Part shown: positions 1,517 through 10,738 of the stretch, piece after piece
How positions within the stretch are numbered: position 1 is the first letter of the stretch
How the letters are laid out: each line of letters begins with the position of its first letter
DNA from: Candidatus Woesebacteria bacterium
GTDB lineage: Bacteria > Patescibacteriota > Microgenomatia > UBA8517
Length of the DNA stretch: 64,000 nt
Direction of reading: 5' to 3'
Assembly: GCA_013426185.1 (NCBI GenBank)
Contig: CP058602.1
Span: 10,231 to 74,230, forward strand
Notes under the pieces: generated by a model
What the model was told of the DNA's origin: nothing
The model's database searches: none
Seen by the model: only the letters and a program-made list of their open reading frames with translations
Program-made: the position numbers and the translations under genes

Positions 1517-2590
1517 ATGTTTAAATTTTTCTTTTGGCTTCTGGTTATTCTTTTGATCGTCTTTCGCTTCTTTTATCTTCGGCCCAATTTCATTGACGGC
1601 TCAAGAATTAGAATTTCGTCTGAAAGAATAGGAAGTGAGCCTTTGCGGTTTGAGAAAAGCCAAAGAATAACAATTCTTGGTCTTAAAGCTTATTTGCCTT
1701 TGTATCCTGAAATTAATTATGGAGATATGGTAACTGTGGAGGGAAGGGTAAACCTCAAGAAAAAAACGCTTGATGAGGCAAAACTTATTAAACTTGAAAA
1801 GGGCAATAGTTTTTATAAATTAAGAGAGCGATTGATTCTTTTTTATCAAAAATACCTTCCTGAACCTCATTCAAGTTTAGTTGCCGGAATGGTTTTGGGT
1901 TCAAAAGCAAGTCTGCCTTATGATTTTTGGCAAAATCTAAAAAAGACAGGCACGGCTCATGTGGTAGTTGCCTCGGGAATGAATGTTTCCTTAATTGCCG
2001 GATTTTTGGCCTCCTTTTTTATCATTTTTCTCAAAAGGCGCTATGCCTTATTGCTTTCGCTTTTGGGAATTTGGTTTTATGCTTTTCTTTGTGGCTTTGA
2101 GGCGCCTATCATAAGAGCTTCTATAATGGGTAGCCTTTCTTTCATTGCTGTTATTTTTGGCCGTATGAATTTAGCTTTAAGAGCTCTTTTTGTCTCGTTT
2201 TTTCTTATGCTTATTTTTAATCCTTACTTTATTTTTGATGTTGGTTTTATTCTTTCTTTTGCTGCAACTTTGTCATTAATTCTTTTTCAAAAGAAAGTAG
2301 ACAACTTTTTGAGATTCATTCCTTCTTTTTTAAGAGAGGGCTTTTCAACTTCTCTTGCAGCCCAAATCTTGGTCGCCCCGATACTTTATTTTACATTTGG
2401 ATACTTTTCGATATACTCGCCCCTGATAAACGGTCTTGTGCTTTGGACGGTTCCTTATATCACTATTTTGGGAATGCTTTCTGGCATTTTTTCCCTTTTT
2501 ATTCCTTTTTTGGGTAGATTTTTGCTTCTTTTGTCATATCCTTTGATTTTTTGGTTTGTAAGTTTGGTTAATCTTTTGGGAAGTATATGA
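1517..2590 (+). CDS. comEC: ComEC/Rec2 N-terminal part (DUF4131 plus polytopic competence membrane domain)
   Basis: Polytopic membrane protein with 'GTAHVVVASGMNVSLIAGFLA' ComEC competence-domain signature. The stop overlaps the next ORF start (ATGA). Confidence 0.75.
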   Translation: MFKFFFWLLVILLIVFRFFYLRPNFIDGSRIRISSERIGSEPLRFEKSQRITILGLKAYLPLYPEINYGDMVTVEGRVNLKKKTLDEAKLIKLEKGNSFYKLRERLILFYQKYLPEPHSSLVAGMVLGSKASLPYDFWQNLKKTGTAHVVVASGMNVSLIAGFLASFFIIFLKRRYALLLSLLGIWFYAFLCGFEAPIIRASIMGSLSFIAVIFGRMNLALRALFVSFFLMLIFNPYFIFDVGFILSFAATLSLILFQKKVDNFLRFIPSFLREGFSTSLAAQILVAPILYFTFGYFSIYSPLINGLVLWTVPYITILGMLSGIFSLFIPFLGRFLLLLSYPLIFWFVSLVNLLGSI

Positions 2591-3513
2591 ATATCAAGTT
2601 TTGGCGGTTTTTCTTTGGCTTTTTAGTTTTGTCTTCGGCTTTGGTTTGGCTCTTTGTCTTTCTTTCGCCTGATGACAAGTTTCATCTTGTCGCCTGTAAT
2701 GTGGGGCAGGGAGATGCGATTCTTGCTTATTATAAAGACAATCAAGTTTTGATTGATGGCGGGCCGGGGAATAGGGTACTTGATTGCCTTAGTCGTCATA
2801 TGCCCTTTTGGGATAGAAAGATTGAAATGGTCGTCCTGACTCATCCTGAGGCCGATCACTTTAGTGGTTTGATAGAGGTTTTTAAAAGGTATAATGTTGG
2901 AGCTTTTTTGGCATCTCCGCTTGAATCTAGCAGTCAAGGATACCAATTGCTAAAAGAAGAGGTGGGGAGTCGTGGGGTTAGGGTTATAGAACCGGATAGG
3001 GGTAAGAATATAGGAGTTGGTTTGATGCATTTTGTTATACTTCATCCATCGCATCAATTTTTGGCTGAAAATTCAAGCTTAGATACAACATCTCGTAATA
3101 ATCAAAATGTATCAGTCTTGGGTGCAAGAACAACTAATAGGAACTTGAATGAATTTTCAATTAACCTCATTTTAAGCTTTGGTGAGTTTGATGCTTTACT
3201 GACTGGTGATATTGTTCCTTCTGCTTCAGGTGAAGTTGAAGAGGCTTTTAAATCAGCTTTGGTGTTTATTAAAGACGGTAAGGTTGAATATCTCAAAGTG
3301 CCTCATCATGGTAGCAAAAATGGATTAACGCAGGATTTGCTGGAATTAGTAAGGCCTAAAATTGCTGTTATTTCAGTAGGCAAGAACTCCTATGGCCATC
3401 CAAGTCCTGAAATTTTGAAGATGCTTGAAAATGCTGGTGCTTCAGTTTTTCAAACTAAAGAGATGGGGGATGTAGAAGTAATCTCAGACGGCTTGAGGTG
3501 GAGGATCAGATAG
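2587..3513 (+). CDS. comEC: ComEC C-terminal metallo-beta-lactamase domain, encoded as a separate ORF
   Basis: 'LVACNVGQGDAILAY...IDGGP' and 'HPEADHFSGL' MBL-fold motifs. 4-nt overlap with the upstream ComEC membrane ORF. Confidence 0.8.
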   Translation: MNIKFWRFFFGFLVLSSALVWLFVFLSPDDKFHLVACNVGQGDAILAYYKDNQVLIDGGPGNRVLDCLSRHMPFWDRKIEMVVLTHPEADHFSGLIEVFKRYNVGAFLASPLESSSQGYQLLKEEVGSRGVRVIEPDRGKNIGVGLMHFVILHPSHQFLAENSSLDTTSRNNQNVSVLGARTTNRNLNEFSINLILSFGEFDALLTGDIVPSASGEVEEAFKSALVFIKDGKVEYLKVPHHGSKNGLTQDLLELVRPKIAVISVGKNSYGHPSPEILKMLENAGASVFQTKEMGDVEVISDGLRWRIR

Positions 3514-3530
3514 TTGTTATAGCAGCTATA
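3506..3530. repeat. Left inverted repeat / palindrome (gttatagcagctataacggttataa) flanking the four-helix-bundle gene
   Basis: The 17-nt perfect palindrome gttatagc-a-gctataac is followed by ggttataa repeats. The partner at 4075-4098 is its reverse complement with 1 mismatch. Confidence 0.7.
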
Positions 3531-3550
3531 ACGGTTATAATGGTTATAAC

Positions 3551-4075
3551 ATGCCGGGCGGTTATAAAAGTCTAGCCTTTTTTATCCAGTCCTCAATAAT
3601 CTACGATTTCACTGTCCAATTTGTTAAGCGCTATATTGAAAAAGGCTCACGCACGGCCGGTCAGATGGTTCAAGCAGCTCGTTCAGGGAAGCAAAATATA
3701 GCCGAAGGCTACCTTCAAAAAAGCTTTGAGGGTAAACTCAAGTTAATCTCAGTCTCAAGAGCAAGTCTTGAGGAGCTCTTAAATGATTATTGCGATTTTT
3801 TGAGACAGAAAAATTTGAAACTTTGGGATAAAAATAGCTCTCTTTCCCAAAGAGTAAGAAGCCTTGCTTATCAAGACAACAAAAGTTACCAGACTTACGA
3901 GAAATATCTTTTAAATCCAGAATCGGCTGCAAACGCAATGATTTGCTTTATCAACCAAACTAACAAGCTTCTTGACCAAAAAATTAGGTGGCTTGAAGAA
4001 GACTTTGTCAAGCAGGGTGGCTTTAGAGAAAACTTGTTTAGGAAAAGAAGGGAATATCTTGCCAAAAGACGATAG
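3551..4075 (+). CDS. Four-helix-bundle protein (23S rRNA intervening-sequence protein family, TIGR02436-like)
   Basis: 'GKQNIAEGY' motif and predicted all-helical 170-aa protein. Gene bracketed by inverted palindromic repeats. Confidence 0.5.
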   Translation: MPGGYKSLAFFIQSSIIYDFTVQFVKRYIEKGSRTAGQMVQAARSGKQNIAEGYLQKSFEGKLKLISVSRASLEELLNDYCDFLRQKNLKLWDKNSSLSQRVRSLAYQDNKSYQTYEKYLLNPESAANAMICFINQTNKLLDQKIRWLEEDFVKQGGFRENLFRKRREYLAKRR

Positions 4076-4098
4076 TTATAATCGTTATAGCTGCTATA
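4075..4098. repeat. Right inverted repeat / palindrome (ttataatcgttatagctgctataa)
   Basis: Reverse complement of the 3506-3530 repeat. Contains the palindrome gttatagc-t-gctataa. Confidence 0.7.
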
Positions 4099-4106
4099 AT
4101 ATTTAT

Positions 4107-5873
4107 ATGAACTTAAAACTAAAGGACCTGGTTGCTTCCTCTTTGGGGCTTGAGGCGGGCGATATTTCTCTTGAAATACCGGAGAAAGAAGAGTTTGGCG
4201 ATTATACCACCAATTTGGCAATGCAGATTTTTGGTGACTCTACGAAGCTAAAAAAGCTTCCTTTTGGATCTTTTGATTTCAAAAATCCGCAAGGACTAGC
4301 ATCAAAAATATCTGAAATCTTAAGCCAAAACAAAGAATTGATGCATTTTATTTCTAAAATTGAAGTTAAAAAACCAGGTTTTATTAATTTTTGGTTAAAA
4401 GATGATACTTTATTTAATAATTTGATATCTATAAGTAAGGAAAAGTATGATTATGGATCAAGTCAGATTGGGGTAGGTAAAAGGGTGGTGATTGATTATT
4501 CGTCCCCTAATATTGCCAAGCAATTTTCGATTGGGCATTTGCGTTCAACTATCATTGGCCATGCGCTTTACAACATCTACCAGTTTCTGGGCTACAGGAC
4601 TATTGGCGATAACCACCTTGGTGATTGGGGGACTCAATTTGGCAAGCTTATTTATATGCTTCGCCGCTACCAGCTTAATTCTCTTGATGTTAAGACTCTT
4701 GAAGAGCTTTATGTTAAGTTTCATAAACTAGCCGAAGAAGATAAAACGGGAGAGATGGAGTTTCAGGCTCGTATCTGGTTTAGCAAGCTTGAGAAAGGTA
4801 ATAAAACGGCTTACCTCACTTGGCAAAAATGCCGCCAAATCTCGCTTCAAGAATTCAACAGAATTTATGACCTTTTGGGTGTTTCTTTTGACTATATGCT
4901 TGGTGAGAGCCATTACCAATCAGAAATAAAATCAATGCTAAAAGACAAAAAGCTATTATCAGTTCTTGAAGAAGGGGAAAATGGGGCCAAAATAATCCGT
5001 CTTGATGAGTTTGGTATAAAAACGCCTCTTATGTTTCTAAAAAGTGATGGCGCAACAACTTATGCGGCGCGAGATTTAGCTTGCCTTAGGTATCGTATGA
5101 AGCGCTTTCAGCCTCATATTATTATTTATGAGGTTGGGCAGGAACAGACGCTTCATTTTAAGCAGGTTTTTGCCGCTGCGCGCAAGCTTGGGATTGTTCC
5201 TCCTGAAGTTATTCTTTATCACACTCGCCACGGTCTTTATCTTTCTTCTTCTGGTCGCAAATTTTCAACCAGAAAAGGGGGAGCTGTTAATCTTGAAGAA
5301 GTTCTAAGAGAGGCAATAGCAAAAGCAAGGAAAATTATTGAAAGTTCTGCCACTTCACGCAATCTTTCGGAAGCTGAAATAGAAAGAGTTTCAACCGATG
5401 TTGGGATAGGTGCTATCAAATACTTTGACCTTAAGCATTCAGTTGAAAGCGATATTGTTTTTGATTGGAAAAAGATTTTGGCTTTGGAAGGAAACTCCGG
5501 GCCTTATATTCAATATACTTTTGCCCGCGCTTTTAGTGTCTTAAGTAAAGCCAAGGAGGAGGGAATTGATTTTGAAAAGGAGACTTACCTTTCAAGTTTT
5601 GATTTAGACGATCAGGAAAAAAATATTATCAGGCAGGTTTTTCATTTTGGCGAAATAATTCAAAAATCAGCTGTTGAATTTGCGCCCAACGTTTTATGCG
5701 ATTACCTTTTTACTCTTTCCCAGAAATATAACAGTTTTTATGACAAGTATCCGATTTTAAAGGAAAAGGACTTGCAAAAGAGGTTTTTGCGTCTAAAATT
5801 AACAGAAGCAACAAGCTGGGTTTTGAGAAATGGCTTGAGGCTTCTTGGCATTGAGGTAATAGAGAAGATGTAG
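4107..5873 (+). CDS. argS: Arginine--tRNA ligase
   Basis: Class I aaRS with 'SSPNIAKQFSIGHLRSTIIG' (HIGH region) and C-terminal anticodon-binding (DALR-type) domain. Start moved to the ATG at 4107 (MNLKLKD); the tracked ORF from 3972 overlaps the upstream gene and the IR. Confidence 0.9.
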   Translation: MNLKLKDLVASSLGLEAGDISLEIPEKEEFGDYTTNLAMQIFGDSTKLKKLPFGSFDFKNPQGLASKISEILSQNKELMHFISKIEVKKPGFINFWLKDDTLFNNLISISKEKYDYGSSQIGVGKRVVIDYSSPNIAKQFSIGHLRSTIIGHALYNIYQFLGYRTIGDNHLGDWGTQFGKLIYMLRRYQLNSLDVKTLEELYVKFHKLAEEDKTGEMEFQARIWFSKLEKGNKTAYLTWQKCRQISLQEFNRIYDLLGVSFDYMLGESHYQSEIKSMLKDKKLLSVLEEGENGAKIIRLDEFGIKTPLMFLKSDGATTYAARDLACLRYRMKRFQPHIIIYEVGQEQTLHFKQVFAAARKLGIVPPEVILYHTRHGLYLSSSGRKFSTRKGGAVNLEEVLREAIAKARKIIESSATSRNLSEAEIERVSTDVGIGAIKYFDLKHSVESDIVFDWKKILALEGNSGPYIQYTFARAFSVLSKAKEEGIDFEKETYLSSFDLDDQEKNIIRQVFHFGEIIQKSAVEFAPNVLCDYLFTLSQKYNSFYDKYPILKEKDLQKRFLRLKLTEATSWVLRNGLRLLGIEVIEKM

Positions 5874-7926: not shown

Positions 7927-9000
7927 TTATCTATCTGAAATTTTTTGCGTCCTATTGGAAAGAATAATAGGTTGTTCGTCAGAACTGCGCTTAAATTCTC
8001 TTGGATAGTTGGTATATCTTTCCATGATTTGCTCCATAGTCATATTGTTTGGTCTTCCAGATACTCCGTTTGGCGCGGGTGGAAGTATGCGTGGTAGACA
8101 GTACCTCATTGGATCGTTTGGATAAACGGCCATTTCCATAATAGGTCGACTCGTTCCACCGAAGGCAAATTCTAAACCAATACTCTTAAGTTCGTCTGGA
8201 GTGTATGCGCAAGCCTCATATGGCCATGATAGACACTTTACTTTGATACCGAGTCGTGATTCGATTTCATCCATAGATGAGCGAAGCTCACTTAAACCTT
8301 CACTTGCTTTTACCTTTGAGAAGTCTCTGTGCGTTTCAGAGTGGCATCCAAAGCTAAAAACGCCCGAAGAAAGCGCGCTTTCGAAAGTCTTCCAACAACG
8401 ATCTTCTTTACAAACAGAGGACTCACCTTTATCCATGTTTTTTGTCCAGATGAATGAGATAAAATGCATACCGTATTCTTTGAGCACAGGAACCATGCGG
8501 GGTAAGGAGTTGAGCGATGTGTTACCAGAGTCGGTGGTAAGAATAACGGAACGTCCGGGCAAATCAAGCTCTCCGTTTAGATATCCTACCAGTTCGTCCG
8601 CTGTTACCGCATGGAAATCATTTATTGCTAGCCATTCCATCTGTTTAGCAAAATATCCTGGATCCATATAATAACCGGGATACATGTTGTAATAATCACC
8701 ATGGTACTCGAATGCTGGTATAGATTTGGCAACACCATAAGCTTCTATTCTACGTTCCAGTTCAGCTTTGGGTTTTTTCGTAGGTGCCAATTCGGGGGGT
8801 TGTGTCGGCGTGACTTTTCGAGCAGAATCGGTCGTTTCAGCTTGAGCCTCTCCATTAGTGGGTGTTGGCTGTTGAGTTGGAAATAGCGTACTAGCTACTT
8901 TAAAAACAAAAGTAGGTTTAACAAATAGCTCCCAAGTCGTCGCACCGGTGAAAAGGCCGGCAAGTCTAATAAAACCTCTTCGGTCTATTCTATCGACCAT
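7927..9000 (-). CDS. Secreted polysaccharide deacetylase (CE4/NodB-like) with twin-arginine signal
   Basis: N-terminal 'DRRGFIRLAGLFTGA' Tat motif. 'LTTDSGN' and 'GCHSETH' match CE4 motifs 1 and 2. Confidence 0.65.
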   Translation of the reverse strand: MVDRIDRRGFIRLAGLFTGATTWELFVKPTFVFKVASTLFPTQQPTPTNGEAQAETTDSARKVTPTQPPELAPTKKPKAELERRIEAYGVAKSIPAFEYHGDYYNMYPGYYMDPGYFAKQMEWLAINDFHAVTADELVGYLNGELDLPGRSVILTTDSGNTSLNSLPRMVPVLKEYGMHFISFIWTKNMDKGESSVCKEDRCWKTFESALSSGVFSFGCHSETHRDFSKVKASEGLSELRSSMDEIESRLGIKVKCLSWPYEACAYTPDELKSIGLEFAFGGTSRPIMEMAVYPNDPMRYCLPRILPPAPNGVSGRPNNMTMEQIMERYTNYPREFKRSSDEQPIILSNRTQKISDR

Positions 9001-10314: not shown

Positions 10315-10387
10315 GCCGGTGTAGCTCAAAGGATAGAGCAGTCCCGTCCTAAGGGAAAGGTTGAGGGTTCAACTCCCCCCACCGGCA
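10315..10387 (+). tRNA. tRNA-Arg (anticodon CCT)
   Basis: Manual cloverleaf: acceptor GCCGGTG/CACCGGC, D-arm GCTC..GAGC, anticodon loop GTCCTAA (U33, CCT, A37), T-loop TTCAACT. One A-C mismatch in the T stem. Confidence 0.65.
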
Positions 10388-10738
10388 CACGACAGATCTC
10401 GGTCGTCGGACATCAGCTGTCGGATATCGGCTTTCAGACGTCAGACTTCAGACATCGGATATCGGCCGTCGGACATCAGCTGTCAGCCGTTGGCAATTAA
10501 TCAAAGCTGGTCGGAAGCAGTATTTAGTATTTTGTATTATGTATTATGCAGGAAATACAAGTAGAAAGTAGAAAGTAGAATGTAGAATGTAGTAAGTAGA
10601 AAGCAAAAATTCATAACTCAATAGTTAAAGGTTCAAAGTTAAAAGTTGTGTATTATCCTTTCTACTTTCTGCTTACTACTTTCTACTAATTTTAAGTTTT
10701 GACTTTTGATTTTTGAGTTTTAAGTTAATTTGTAATCT
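10388..10738. repeat. Modular low-complexity repeat array, forward orientation
   Basis: cggaYatcRg tandems, then gtattatgtattatgcagg, then gtagaaagtagaa, then aaagtt units, then gttttgacttttgatttttgagttttaagtt. Confidence 0.85.

Follow-up and report, generated by a model that had tools for sequence, protein, structure and literature searches.

At the junction between comEC and argS of an ultrasmall (CPR) bacterium, we found a gene cassette of ~0.6 kb embedded in arrays of a 9-bp unit, N-R-TTATAA-H. Relatives either lack the cassette or carry it flipped between the same two housekeeping genes, so that this one junction is known occupied, empty, and with the cassette inverted. We interpret the arrays as promoter-like sequences and as substrates for recombination, and give this reading a probability of roughly 0.55. 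In the window (the whole stretch of DNA analyzed, 64,000 nucleotides), the cassette fits exactly between the stop codon of comEC (TAG at 3511-3513), which forms the left edge of the junction, and the start codon of argS. The locus has these features:

2587-3513, + strand: C-terminal (metallo-beta-lactamase) ORF of comEC, left neighbour, with Lactamase_B and a ComEC_Rec2 C-terminal match
3516-3550, no strand: upstream array with four 9-bp units in phase, TATAGCAGC / TATAACGGT / TATAATGGT / TATAAC
3551-4075, + strand: four-helix-bundle protein gene, 174 aa, TIGR02436 and TIGR04258 both above cut-off, characterized also by fold, homologues, and pI
3560-3568, + strand: array unit within the ORF, GGTTATAAA, which codes for the conserved residues G4-Y5-K6, 2 x 9 bp in phase with the upstream array
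3869-3907, + strand: relic of an internal array, codons 107-119, YQDNKSYQTYEKY, Tyr-x-x period retained
4076-4106, no strand: downstream array (the right arm) with three units in phase, TATAATCGT / TATAGCTGC / TATAAT, then ATTTAT
4107-5873, + strand: argS, right neighbour, start ATG 4107, 588 aa, TIGR00456 440 bits

The earlier note had described a 174-aa ORF with a NIAEG-type motif and assigned it to the four-helix-bundle family. This ORF is present, with its coordinates at 3551-4075 (+ strand) and QNIAEGY as residues 48-54, and the family assignment was confirmed by TIGR02436 (four helix bundle protein; 27.7 bits, cut-off 24). For PF05635 (23S_rRNA_IVP), the match (E=7.8e-6, 26.5 bits) stays below the gathering score of 33.8; all 44 of the 44 aligned homologues match this profile at E<1e-3, the best at 1.9e-9. 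The C-terminal part, residues 123-170, carries a TIGR04258 suffix domain that scores 60.8 bits (cut-off 40) and spans positions 1-48 of the 49 in the model. The AF2 monomer model contains only helices (pLDDT 91, pTM 0.83), and its best PDB fold matches with Foldseek are 2GSC (Xcc0516) and 2RLD (BT_0352, 'S23 ribosomal protein family'), with probability 1.0 and target-normalised TM of 0.71-0.75. Sequence identity to these two is just 15-18%, and the profile of the homologues matches the 2GSC sequence at E=0.004. The 174-aa product is predicted to share the four-helix-bundle fold of the solved members, which are shorter (108-128 residues) and have neither the suffix helix at the C-terminus nor the Tyr/Asn loop of the cassette protein.

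The protein is Avd/PF05635-like, combines TIGR02436 with the TIGR04258 suffix, and is highly conserved and basic: the alignment of 44 homologues has 59 invariant columns, and the pI is 9.8 for the whole protein and 11.7 for the C-terminal tail. Homology to Avd and the basic tail suggest that it may bind nucleic acid, possibly the arrays themselves; none of the profile libraries applied recognized a DNA-binding motif in it. The subfamily is very large: of the 8,000 candidates scored, at least 7,997 clusters (90% identity) matched at E<=0.001, and the best 120 of these clusters are 65-98% identical to the protein of the window.

Regarding the flanking repeats, both strings quoted in the earlier note exist, but at shifted positions: the left arm lies at 3516-3540 (previously 3506-3530) and the right arm at 4076-4099/4100 (previously 4075-4098). 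The arms are complementary at 23 of 24 bases, and the sequence GTTATAGCWGCTATAA occurs twice in the 64 kb, both times at the arms (chance expectation 0.11). A 17-nt perfect palindrome had been claimed for each arm; this holds for the left one (3516-3532), whereas in the right one a broken outer pair shortens the perfect stretch to 15 nt. The 'ttataa iterations' are in fact a 9-bp tandem array (TRF: 3516-3550, period 9, 3.9 copies), and three or more in-phase TATA[AG] units were found in the window solely at 3518-3549 and 4077-4099, and never in shuffles. The arms also match each other directly over 16 nt (15/16), which arises because the unit pair is palindromic. Since the unit core itself is a palindrome, arrays that flank the gene look like inverted repeats. 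What the arms show is one instance of a design common to the family rather than a dedicated stem, and the unusually good 24-nt match in the window clade comes from the same GCWGC-spaced unit pair standing on both sides. Beyond the arrays, no other long repeat pair was found in 3300-4300.

That design recurs across CPR/Microgenomates metagenomes (74 distinct loci), with the unit consensus N-R-T-T-A-T-A-A-H (9 bp): the CPR four-helix-bundle-suffix subfamily goes together with TTATAA arrays around and even within the gene. Arrays of at least three units are present upstream in 60 of 69 loci, downstream in 36 of 71, and inside the ORF in 63 of 74; a downstream array is wholly absent in 27 of 66. 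The number of units per locus ranges from 0 to 9 (typically 4-5), and the spacers between units vary without conservation. Internal TTATAA units are present in 63 of 74 homologous loci at the place corresponding to 3869-3907, where those of the window clade have decayed. No arrays were found in 690 kb of control argS loci, and in L171 and L172 (17-20 kb) they stand only at the four-helix-bundle gene. For the window, the control loci, and L171 and L172, this rules out the arrays as a generic intergenic feature, with one exception: in the tmk/ndk group, additional arrays lie upstream of the ndk and tmk genes that adjoin the cassette. These additional arrays fit a regulatory reading equally well as a cassette reading. 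Literature searches that covered the family accessions, TTATAA in CPR, and leaderless translation in Patescibacteria turned up no account of this architecture.

The array within the ORF shows bias at the DNA level. Its Tyr codons are TAT in 330 cases and TAC in 14, versus 235 and 84 in other conserved Tyr columns (p=7e-17), and the base that precedes them is T in 69-100% of sequences (overall 35%). In the Y5 column, TAT was counted 57 times and TAC 14 times, and the following codon is AA* in 93%. Reading phase is not random either, with downstream arrays in stop phase in 33 of 37 loci and upstream arrays avoiding it in 61 of 68. Counting against our reading, the in-ORF array and the frequent upstream avoidance of the stop phase could be due to selection that acts on a peptide rich in Tyr and Asn instead of on DNA.

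The comparison with relatives supports the gene plus its repeats as an insertion. The earlier note had proposed to look for relatives with comEC directly adjacent to argS, and closer relatives indeed lack the insert, with a spacer of 16-140 nt. The two genes abut in L175/L176 (ArgS 81% identical), L177 (73%), L180/L181 (66%), and L178 (64%), and also in the distant L013 and L016. Among complete CPR genomes, CP055308.1 and AP024680.1 also have an empty argS site. The informative empty sites were found by protein search and contig look-ups, the closest-ArgS GTDB species representative being only 52% identical. In the neighbour-joining (NJ) tree of ArgS, cassette presence is patchy and the empty-site lineages are successive outgroups of the clade formed by the window and L010, which has the cassette at the same junction with flanks just about 78% identical. 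Patchy presence at comEC/argS may also be read otherwise: one old gene with several losses could replace several gains. The NJ tree of the four-helix-bundle protein is star-like and poorly resolved, with contexts intermixed.

In L004, L005, and L093, the gene lies on the opposite strand while the flanks are 95-97% identical. Against L004, positions 3517-4107 of the window align inverted, and 3308-3551 and 4077-4274 align collinearly. Both arrays align in both ways, which places one inversion breakpoint within each arm. Nine assemblies have the orientation of the window and three the opposite one, at about 5% flank divergence and with one orientation per lineage. Empty sites already carry one to three units, so a target-site duplication would look the same as array growth.

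On the argS side, the earlier note had the cassette overlapping a long-frame start of argS. This overlap is an artefact of ORF calling: only the mechanical ORF from TTG 3972 overlaps. The alignment to TIGR00456 begins from ATG 4107 (protein residues 6-588 on model positions 10-569). Moreover, argS is called at 588 aa in L004, L175, and L176, and in the inverted L004 lineage an upstream extension is impossible. The arrays have a practical consequence for annotation, as gene callers run argS (618 aa) and the four-helix-bundle ORF (194 aa) through them, producing spurious overlaps.

The start at ATG 4107 puts a TATAAT (4095-4100) 6 nt ahead of it, which we infer to be a leaderless argS promoter from its sequence. 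At the upstream array there is a promoter-like pair as well, TTGTTA at 3514-3519 and TATAAT at 3536-3541, and empty sites present GGTTATAAT-N6-ATG at the equivalent place in three of four lineages. The repeat unit matches the -10 box of the host's leaderless promoters (TATAAT-N6-ATG; TATAAT / TTATAAT), and TGnTATAAT-N5-7-ATG precedes several other gene starts in the window, all as single boxes. Some arrays end in phase in TATATG (upstream 16/68, downstream 9/37), though only about a quarter do so exactly. Altogether, these motifs suggest that the arrays act as promoters with leaderless starts.

In the mechanism we propose, the two arms would serve as recombination substrates; one sister lineage carries the entire cassette turned round between them. 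A deletion between arrays could restore the short junction of one to three units seen in relatives. Whichever way the cassette lies, a TATAAT box precedes the cassette ATG and the argS ATG by a few bases; since the box is retained both ways, neither insertion nor inversion would silence argS. Gain, loss, and inversion are all probably caused by recombination at the arrays.

The earlier note had called the locus a mobile IVS-like cassette. Insertion and inversion on long time scales are borne out; recent movement and the likeness to intervening sequences (IVS) are not. A sign of recent transposition would be one protein that occurs unchanged in several contexts, and no such case was found: P0090, the identical protein, has a single context in all 24 contigs examined, and the window holds one copy of the cassette. 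Gene identity tracks the identity of the neighbours (Spearman 0.36 and 0.65). Beyond close relatives, the identity of the four-helix-bundle protein plateaus at about 65-71%, and because it levels off, identity does not separate old vertical descent from transfer. The gene occurs in at least 15 unrelated contexts, and 43% of distinct loci have it directly upstream of argS or tRNA-Arg(CCT). Gene tables of L001 and L004 list no recombinase, transposase, or integrase within about 6 kb, and no reverse transcriptase (RVT family) either.

Other candidate identities were rejected. A phage- or plasmid-borne element found no relative in IMG/VR or GenBank phages, with a non-significant PHROGs hit; PADLOC gave no match for a defence system member; and Rfam on 3300-4400 returned only a chance Phe_leader match (E=0.36) for a known RNA element. 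L186, another CPR genome, offers a parallel case: a different short PF05635 gene, missing from the near-identical L182 and L183, lies there between arrays of a 14-nt unit in inverted orientation (30 nt, 87% complementarity). Judging from this sequence, the insert-with-arrays design may be general across PF05635 genes.

Among the alternatives, we consider it unlikely that the gene is an ordinary, vertically inherited regulator. A PF05635-type oligomer with a basic tail would bind the 9-bp-spaced TTATAA units as operators and control itself and the adjacent argS, tRNA-Arg(CCT), ndk, or tmk; patchiness would reflect losses and the inversion would be incidental. An array upstream of the gene in 87% of loci, and further ones upstream of neighbouring ndk and tmk, fit this reading, and the typical 4-5 units recall the nearest solved relatives (2GSC, 2RLD), deposited with five chains each, which suggests a pentamer such as Avd forms. 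The 59 invariant residues, and an identity of 65-71% where ArgS falls to 28-54%, indicate extreme conservation. The basic pI of protein and tail, the 43% of loci at argS or tRNA-Arg(CCT), and the stable context with correlated neighbour identity are also in line with it, and the relative Avd binds nucleic acid. However, the contexts of the gene are diverse (at least 15 unrelated ones), the window clade has four successive outgroups with clean empty sites, and an operator within an ORF would be unusual. No library recognized a DNA-binding motif, and no PF05635 protein is known to bind DNA sequence-specifically.

The RNA reading of the repeats is improbable. In 23S rRNA intervening sequences that encode PF05635 proteins, a stem is cut by RNase III; by analogy, the arms would pair in a comEC-four-helix-bundle-argS read-through RNA and RNase III would excise the mRNA of the gene. 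The RNase III-type stem can indeed form here. In the MFE fold of 3505-4110, the arms form a stem of about 27 bp (z=-6.5), and the lone arm mismatch would pair as G-U in RNA. For the window clade, the flank duplex has an energy of -50.5 kcal/mol, past the cross-locus 5th percentile of -36.7, and the + strand has no terminator-like site from comEC through the gene to argS, so read-through is plausible. The inverted arrays of the unrelated L186 cassette fit as well.

Despite this, the stem is neither conserved nor compensated in relatives. Over 64-65 distinct loci, own-locus flanks pair no better than cross-locus ones, by ungapped complementarity (score 10.9 vs 10.6, p=0.29) or by duplex energy (-22.1 vs -20.7 kcal/mol, p=0.22). 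L007-L009, L091, and L092 have 2-3 substitutions in the left arm with the right arm unchanged, L010 pairs at background level (-22.7 kcal/mol), and in 27 of 66 loci the downstream side is free of arrays. These self-versus-cross-locus tests and the uncompensated changes in close strains rule out a conserved RNA stem. Besides, if the array were the promoter of the gene, the left arm would fall outside its own mRNA. No rRNA was found in the window, which has only six tRNAs, or in 20 other gene-bearing loci, and Rfam gave no match to the element. With no rRNA, no pairing above cross-locus level, and uncompensated changes, the analogy that the earlier note gave as the reason for the repeats is not supported. 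The premise that such proteins are normally encoded inside 23S intervening sequences does not fit this subfamily: all loci with examined neighbours lie among protein-coding or tRNA genes.

Neutral slippage, in which the arrays would be functionless, microsatellite-like AT-rich growth of a TATAAT box and the inverted repeat a chance product, accounts for the 0 to 9 units between loci, the unconserved spacers, the loss of the internal array in the window clade with the gene kept, and the one to three units already at empty sites, but it is very improbable given arrays tied to one gene over hosts with ArgS 28-54% identical to the window's and none in the 690 kb of control, the non-random phase (33/37 in stop phase downstream, 61/68 avoiding it upstream), the strong synonymous-site bias in the ORF (p=7e-17), and the single boxes at the other TGnTATAAT promoters of the window.

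Read as a cassette in promoter-like arrays, the locus resembles several known systems without matching any. ORFs of PF05635/TIGR02436 occur in 23S rRNA intervening sequences of Leptospira, Coxiella, and others. Like the cassette, these are small ORFs of the same superfamily within inverted repeats, patchy among relatives, which interrupt an essential transcription unit and leave it intact. The cassette differs in lying outside rRNA, between comEC and argS, and in its repeats, which are tandem arrays of a 9-bp unit whose palindromic core resembles a promoter box, not a dedicated stem, with arm complementarity neither conserved nor compensated. Its protein also bears the extra TIGR04258 suffix domain. 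PF05635 ORFs in 23S rRNA intervening sequences are mentioned in PMC10053308, as is the relation of PF05635 to Avd, the accessory variability determinant of diversity-generating retroelements (DGRs; PDB 4DWL). Avd is a basic four-helix bundle of the same superfamily, and binding of nucleic acid is plausible for the cassette protein by this likeness. A DGR role was nevertheless rejected: the surrounding 6 kb or so contain neither a reverse transcriptase nor a template or variable repeat, and 3300-4300 has no long repeat pair besides the arrays. The protein also differs from Avd in its 174 aa and its suffix domain, and it was not found in phage and viral collections.

Invertible DNA switches (fimS, hin, the Bacteroides 'invertons') consist of a short promoter-carrying segment within inverted repeats, found in both orientations. 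The cassette likewise sits within inverted repeats, has promoter-like sequence, and occurs both ways round. Unlike invertons, its orientations are, to judge from assemblies, fixed in separate lineages (about 5% divergence) and not mixed in one population, a site-specific recombinase is missing from the surrounding 6 kb or so, and the whole gene flips while promoter boxes stay on both sides either way. Integron gene cassettes and MITE-like insertions are small units with imperfect inverted repeats at their ends. The cassette shares these repeats, its single gene, a site at a gene junction, and presence or absence among relatives; however, it has no integrase, attI, or attC as integron cassettes do. 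It also shows no transposase nearby and no target-site duplication that stands apart from array growth, occurs once per 64-kb window, and its identical protein is never found in two contexts.

A bolder extension, rather improbable on present evidence, is that the four-helix-bundle-suffix protein forms oligomers that bind DNA sequence-specifically, at runs of 9-bp-spaced TTATAA units. Gene and arrays would then form a self-perpetuating cassette, free of transposase and integrase, that enters leaderless -10 boxes at gene junctions by array recombination, perhaps after natural transformation, gives the downstream gene a replacement promoter, and can be flipped or excised. If true, this would be a previously unrecognised kind of cassette, with the L186 cassette in 14-nt arrays and the 23S rRNA IVS ORFs as variants of one strategy, and it would explain the spread of the enigmatic PF05635 family.

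PF05635/TIGR02436 proteins are among the commonest uncharacterised bacterial proteins, found in rRNA intervening sequences, in DGRs (as Avd), and between housekeeping genes. A large CPR subfamily with a simple DNA signature is a clue to how such a gene family spreads, and a palindromic promoter core can render insertion or inversion harmless to the downstream gene. Finally, the three states of one junction open questions of protein binding, promoter activity, and recombination to experiment.

At the family level, the new element is an array of TTATAA 9-mers accompanying a small four-helix-bundle gene; the array is promoter-like, palindromic, also found within the ORF and a recombination substrate. 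No description of this architecture was found in the literature searched. In the AT-rich window (37.6% G+C), the gene order around it is:

comEA-like gene, 5' of comEC
1517-2590, comEC ORF 1, Competence domain
2587-3513, comEC ORF 2, metallo-beta-lactamase domain
3551-4075 (+), 174-aa ORF, between comEC and argS
4107, ATG start of argS, with ArgS homology from there on
M16 peptidase gene and then ndk, 3' of argS

The comEC ORFs, one with the Competence membrane domain and one with the metallo-beta-lactamase domain, overlap by 4 nt (ATGA). Every fetched relative covering both has the same two-ORF call, down to 64% ArgS identity; thus, the split is probably a real two-gene arrangement and not a frameshift error.

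The 174-aa ORF was rightly assigned to the four-helix-bundle (rRNA-IVS-type) family, given its HMM scores and the PDB matches of its model. It scored 27.7 bits for TIGR02436 (curated cut-off 24) and 60.8 bits for the TIGR04258 'four helix bundle suffix' domain (cut-off 40), and matched PF05635 with E=7.8e-6, under the Pfam gathering score. The AlphaFold model, with 44 homologues as input, was all-helical (pLDDT 91), and its top PDB matches were 2GSC and 2RLD, two solved PF05635 proteins. Of 8,000 scored candidates (90% identity clusters), at least 7,997 were relatives at E<=0.001, the best 120 being 65-98% identical to the window protein. Where the source names a host, it is a Microgenomates-type CPR (Gottesman-, Davies-, Woese-, Roizmanbacteria).

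The arms, the inverted-repeat strings on both sides of this ORF, are real and complementary at 23 of 24 bases, but their positions are 3516-3540 (left) and 4076-4099 (right); the first placement, 3506-3530 and 4075-4098, was off. Their core motif has no other site in the 64 kb (0.11 expected by chance), and Tandem Repeats Finder reported period 9 at 3516-3550. Read in phase, the arms are arrays:

Left array, 5' of the four-helix-bundle gene: TATAGCAGC TATAACGGT TATAATGGT TATAAC-ATG
Right array, 5' of argS: TATAATCGT TATAGCTGC TATAAT-ATTTAT-ATG

Three or more in-phase units occur in the window in both arms only, and in shuffled sequence 0 times. The '17-nt palindrome' is two neighbouring units plus a self-complementary GCWGC spacer. 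A TTATAA core reads the same on both strands, so any pair of arrays looks like inverted and direct repeats at once; the inverted-repeat observation stems from these palindromic arrays.

We fetched 80 metagenome loci together with same-locus relatives and counted 74 distinct loci, over which the unit consensus was N-R-T-T-A-T-A-A-H. Arrays of at least three units were found just upstream of the gene in 60/69 loci and just downstream in 36/71, and 63/74 loci carried an array inside the ORF at codons ~107-119. There were none in 690 kb of control loci, taken from around argS in 80 further genomes that included many CPR, and two MAG contigs covering 17-20 kb around the gene had arrays at the gene only. 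The TTA-TAA stop phase was avoided by 61/68 upstream arrays, which in some loci add a translated YNxYKxY stretch to the N terminus of the protein, and was used by 33/37 downstream arrays. The in-ORF array, lost in the window clade (YQDNKSYQTYEKY), corresponds to a surface loop of Tyr-(Asn/Lys)-x repeats in the protein. Its Tyr codons were TAT 330:TAC 14, vs. 235:84 at the remaining conserved Tyr columns (p=7e-17, Fisher test), and T preceded its TAT codons in 69-100% of sequences vs. 35% overall. The in-ORF array thus appears constrained as DNA too.

The only arrays found without contact to the gene were those of L164 (1670-1701 and 2292-2332; also L128, L131, L138, L159, L162, and L168), directly 5' of both start codons in a tandem pair of ndk paralogues, as well as at the tmk/ndk junction, at most 1.3 kb from the cassette.

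In this clade, the arms were also proposed to pair as an IVS-like RNase III stem. A stem of ~27 bp does close the MFE structure of 3505-4110 (z=-6.5), with an arm duplex energy of -50.5 kcal/mol in this strain. However, the left arm is altered at 2-3 positions in close strains (L007-L009, L091, L092) while the right arm is unchanged, leaving the changes uncompensated, and pairing in L010 is at background level only. Across 64-65 distinct loci, flanks paired no better within a locus than across loci (p=0.29, 0.22), and 27/66 loci had no downstream array. With no sign of selection on the stem, and rRNA absent both from the window and from 20 other loci of the gene, we rank this reading low, as one of small probability for this clade.

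The insertion itself was borne out. The ArgS of the closest GTDB species representatives was at most 52% identical to the window's, and comEC abuts argS in two of them (L013 and L016). Closer relatives were obtained by protein search with ArgS; four of these keep the leuS-comEA-comEC-argS-M16 order, with only 16-140 nt between the comEC stop and the argS ATG, and lack the four-helix-bundle gene:

L175/L176, ArgS 81% identical, no cassette
L177, ArgS 73% identical, no cassette
L180/L181, ArgS 66% identical, no cassette
L178, ArgS 64% identical, no cassette

In the ArgS tree, these four branch off one after another outside the cassette-bearing clade (window group and L010); further off, cassette-bearing and cassette-free lineages interleave. 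Several gains or several losses at this junction may both fit such a pattern.

In a sister lineage (L004, L005, L093), the flanks share 95-97% identity with those of the window, but the gene is on the opposite strand. Window 3517-4107 aligns inverted, and 3308-3551 and 4077-4274 align collinear; therefore, the inversion breakpoints lie inside both arms, through which recombination has occurred at least once. In two distant relatives, the comEC/argS junction is filled by other genes on the opposite strand, a 419-aa ORF (L011 2700-3990, -) or a ~98-aa ORF (L019 3570-3800, -), so it seems a recurrent insertion spot.

The empty junctions would link the arrays to promoters: in three of four lineages, they carry one array-like unit that puts a -10 box 6 nt ahead of the start codon, as in promoters of leaderless mRNAs:

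L175: GGTTATAAT-TGTTAT-ATG
L177: TGTTATAAT-TAGATT-ATG
L180: GGTTATAAT-TGATGT-ATG

The window's argS has its TATAAT at 4095-4100, ahead of ATG 4107. The TGnTATAAT-N5-7-ATG layout recurs at several other window genes: an extended -10 box lies 5-7 nt ahead of the starts at 9000(-), 9617(+), 45663(-), and 55189(-), as at 4107(+), which leaves too little space for a Shine-Dalgarno sequence, a hint that the organism often makes leaderless mRNAs. Together with the empty junctions, these boxes point to the array unit being the host's -10 box. An array runs in phase into a terminal TATATG at 16/68 sites upstream of the gene and at 9/37 downstream of it. The palindromic core would provide a -10 box on both strands, which would account for argS expression surviving both insertion and inversion.

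The cassette was also said to overlap the long-frame start of argS, an overlap confined to a mechanical ORF from TTG 3972. ATG 4107 is the argS start also in the lineage with the inverted cassette, where upstream extension is impossible. Automatic calls run on through the arrays, where two of three frames lack stops, and yield a 618-aa argS and a 194-aa four-helix-bundle ORF (L001 2626-4482; L006 2010-2594 and 2536-4392) with spurious overlaps of 23-59 nt.

Regarding mobility, the gene occupies the comEC/argS context in ~13 distinct loci (ArgS 28-54% identical to the window's), the tmk/tRNA-Arg(CCT) context in ~19, and a place downstream of an ATP-dependent DNA ligase gene in 6. Single contexts included recF-, recA-, proS-, PolX-type polymerase-, and comM-like genes, judged by eye from sequence, as well as genes for glycosyltransferases and large surface proteins. 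In a given context, the gene's identity follows that of the neighbour (Spearman 0.36, 0.65), and one identical protein on 24 contigs has the same place in all; if the gene moves at all, it does so rarely. Its neighbourhood contained no recombinase, transposase, or reverse transcriptase, and it had no match in phage and viral collections or with PADLOC. The mobile cassette of the earlier note is therefore supported on evolutionary time scales only, by empty sites and the flipped cassette.

The tRNA immediately downstream of the gene in the ~19 loci (L098, L101, L112, L123-L134, L138, L144, L150, L153, L157-L168) is always tRNA-Arg with anticodon CCT, and in the ~13 others the gene directly precedes argS; the window's own tRNA-Arg(CCT) (10315-10388) has no cassette. 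Adjacency to tRNA-Arg(CCT) and argS may point to a functional connection with arginine decoding, or may come from sampling.

As for function, the family is homologous to Avd, a diversity-generating retroelement accessory protein (PMC10053308). From this homology and the basic tail (pI 11.7), our best guess is a putative role in nucleic-acid binding, with the arrays themselves possibly the target.

Finally, a parallel case was found in L186, where another gene, short and of the classic PF05635/bAvd type (117 aa; 139-492), lies at the junction of prepilin peptidase and kinase genes (insert 96-559). The near-identical L182 and L183 lack the insert, and there the prepilin peptidase and kinase genes overlap (~360-375). 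The ends of the insert are also inverted arrays, with a 14-nt unit, CTAGTCACTAATC(C/A), compared to 9 bp in the window, and it gives the downstream kinase gene a new start codon (MGFDLIGIVG -> MIIGIVG). This insert suggests a general design in these genomes: a small four-helix-bundle gene with inverted short-repeat arrays at a gene junction.
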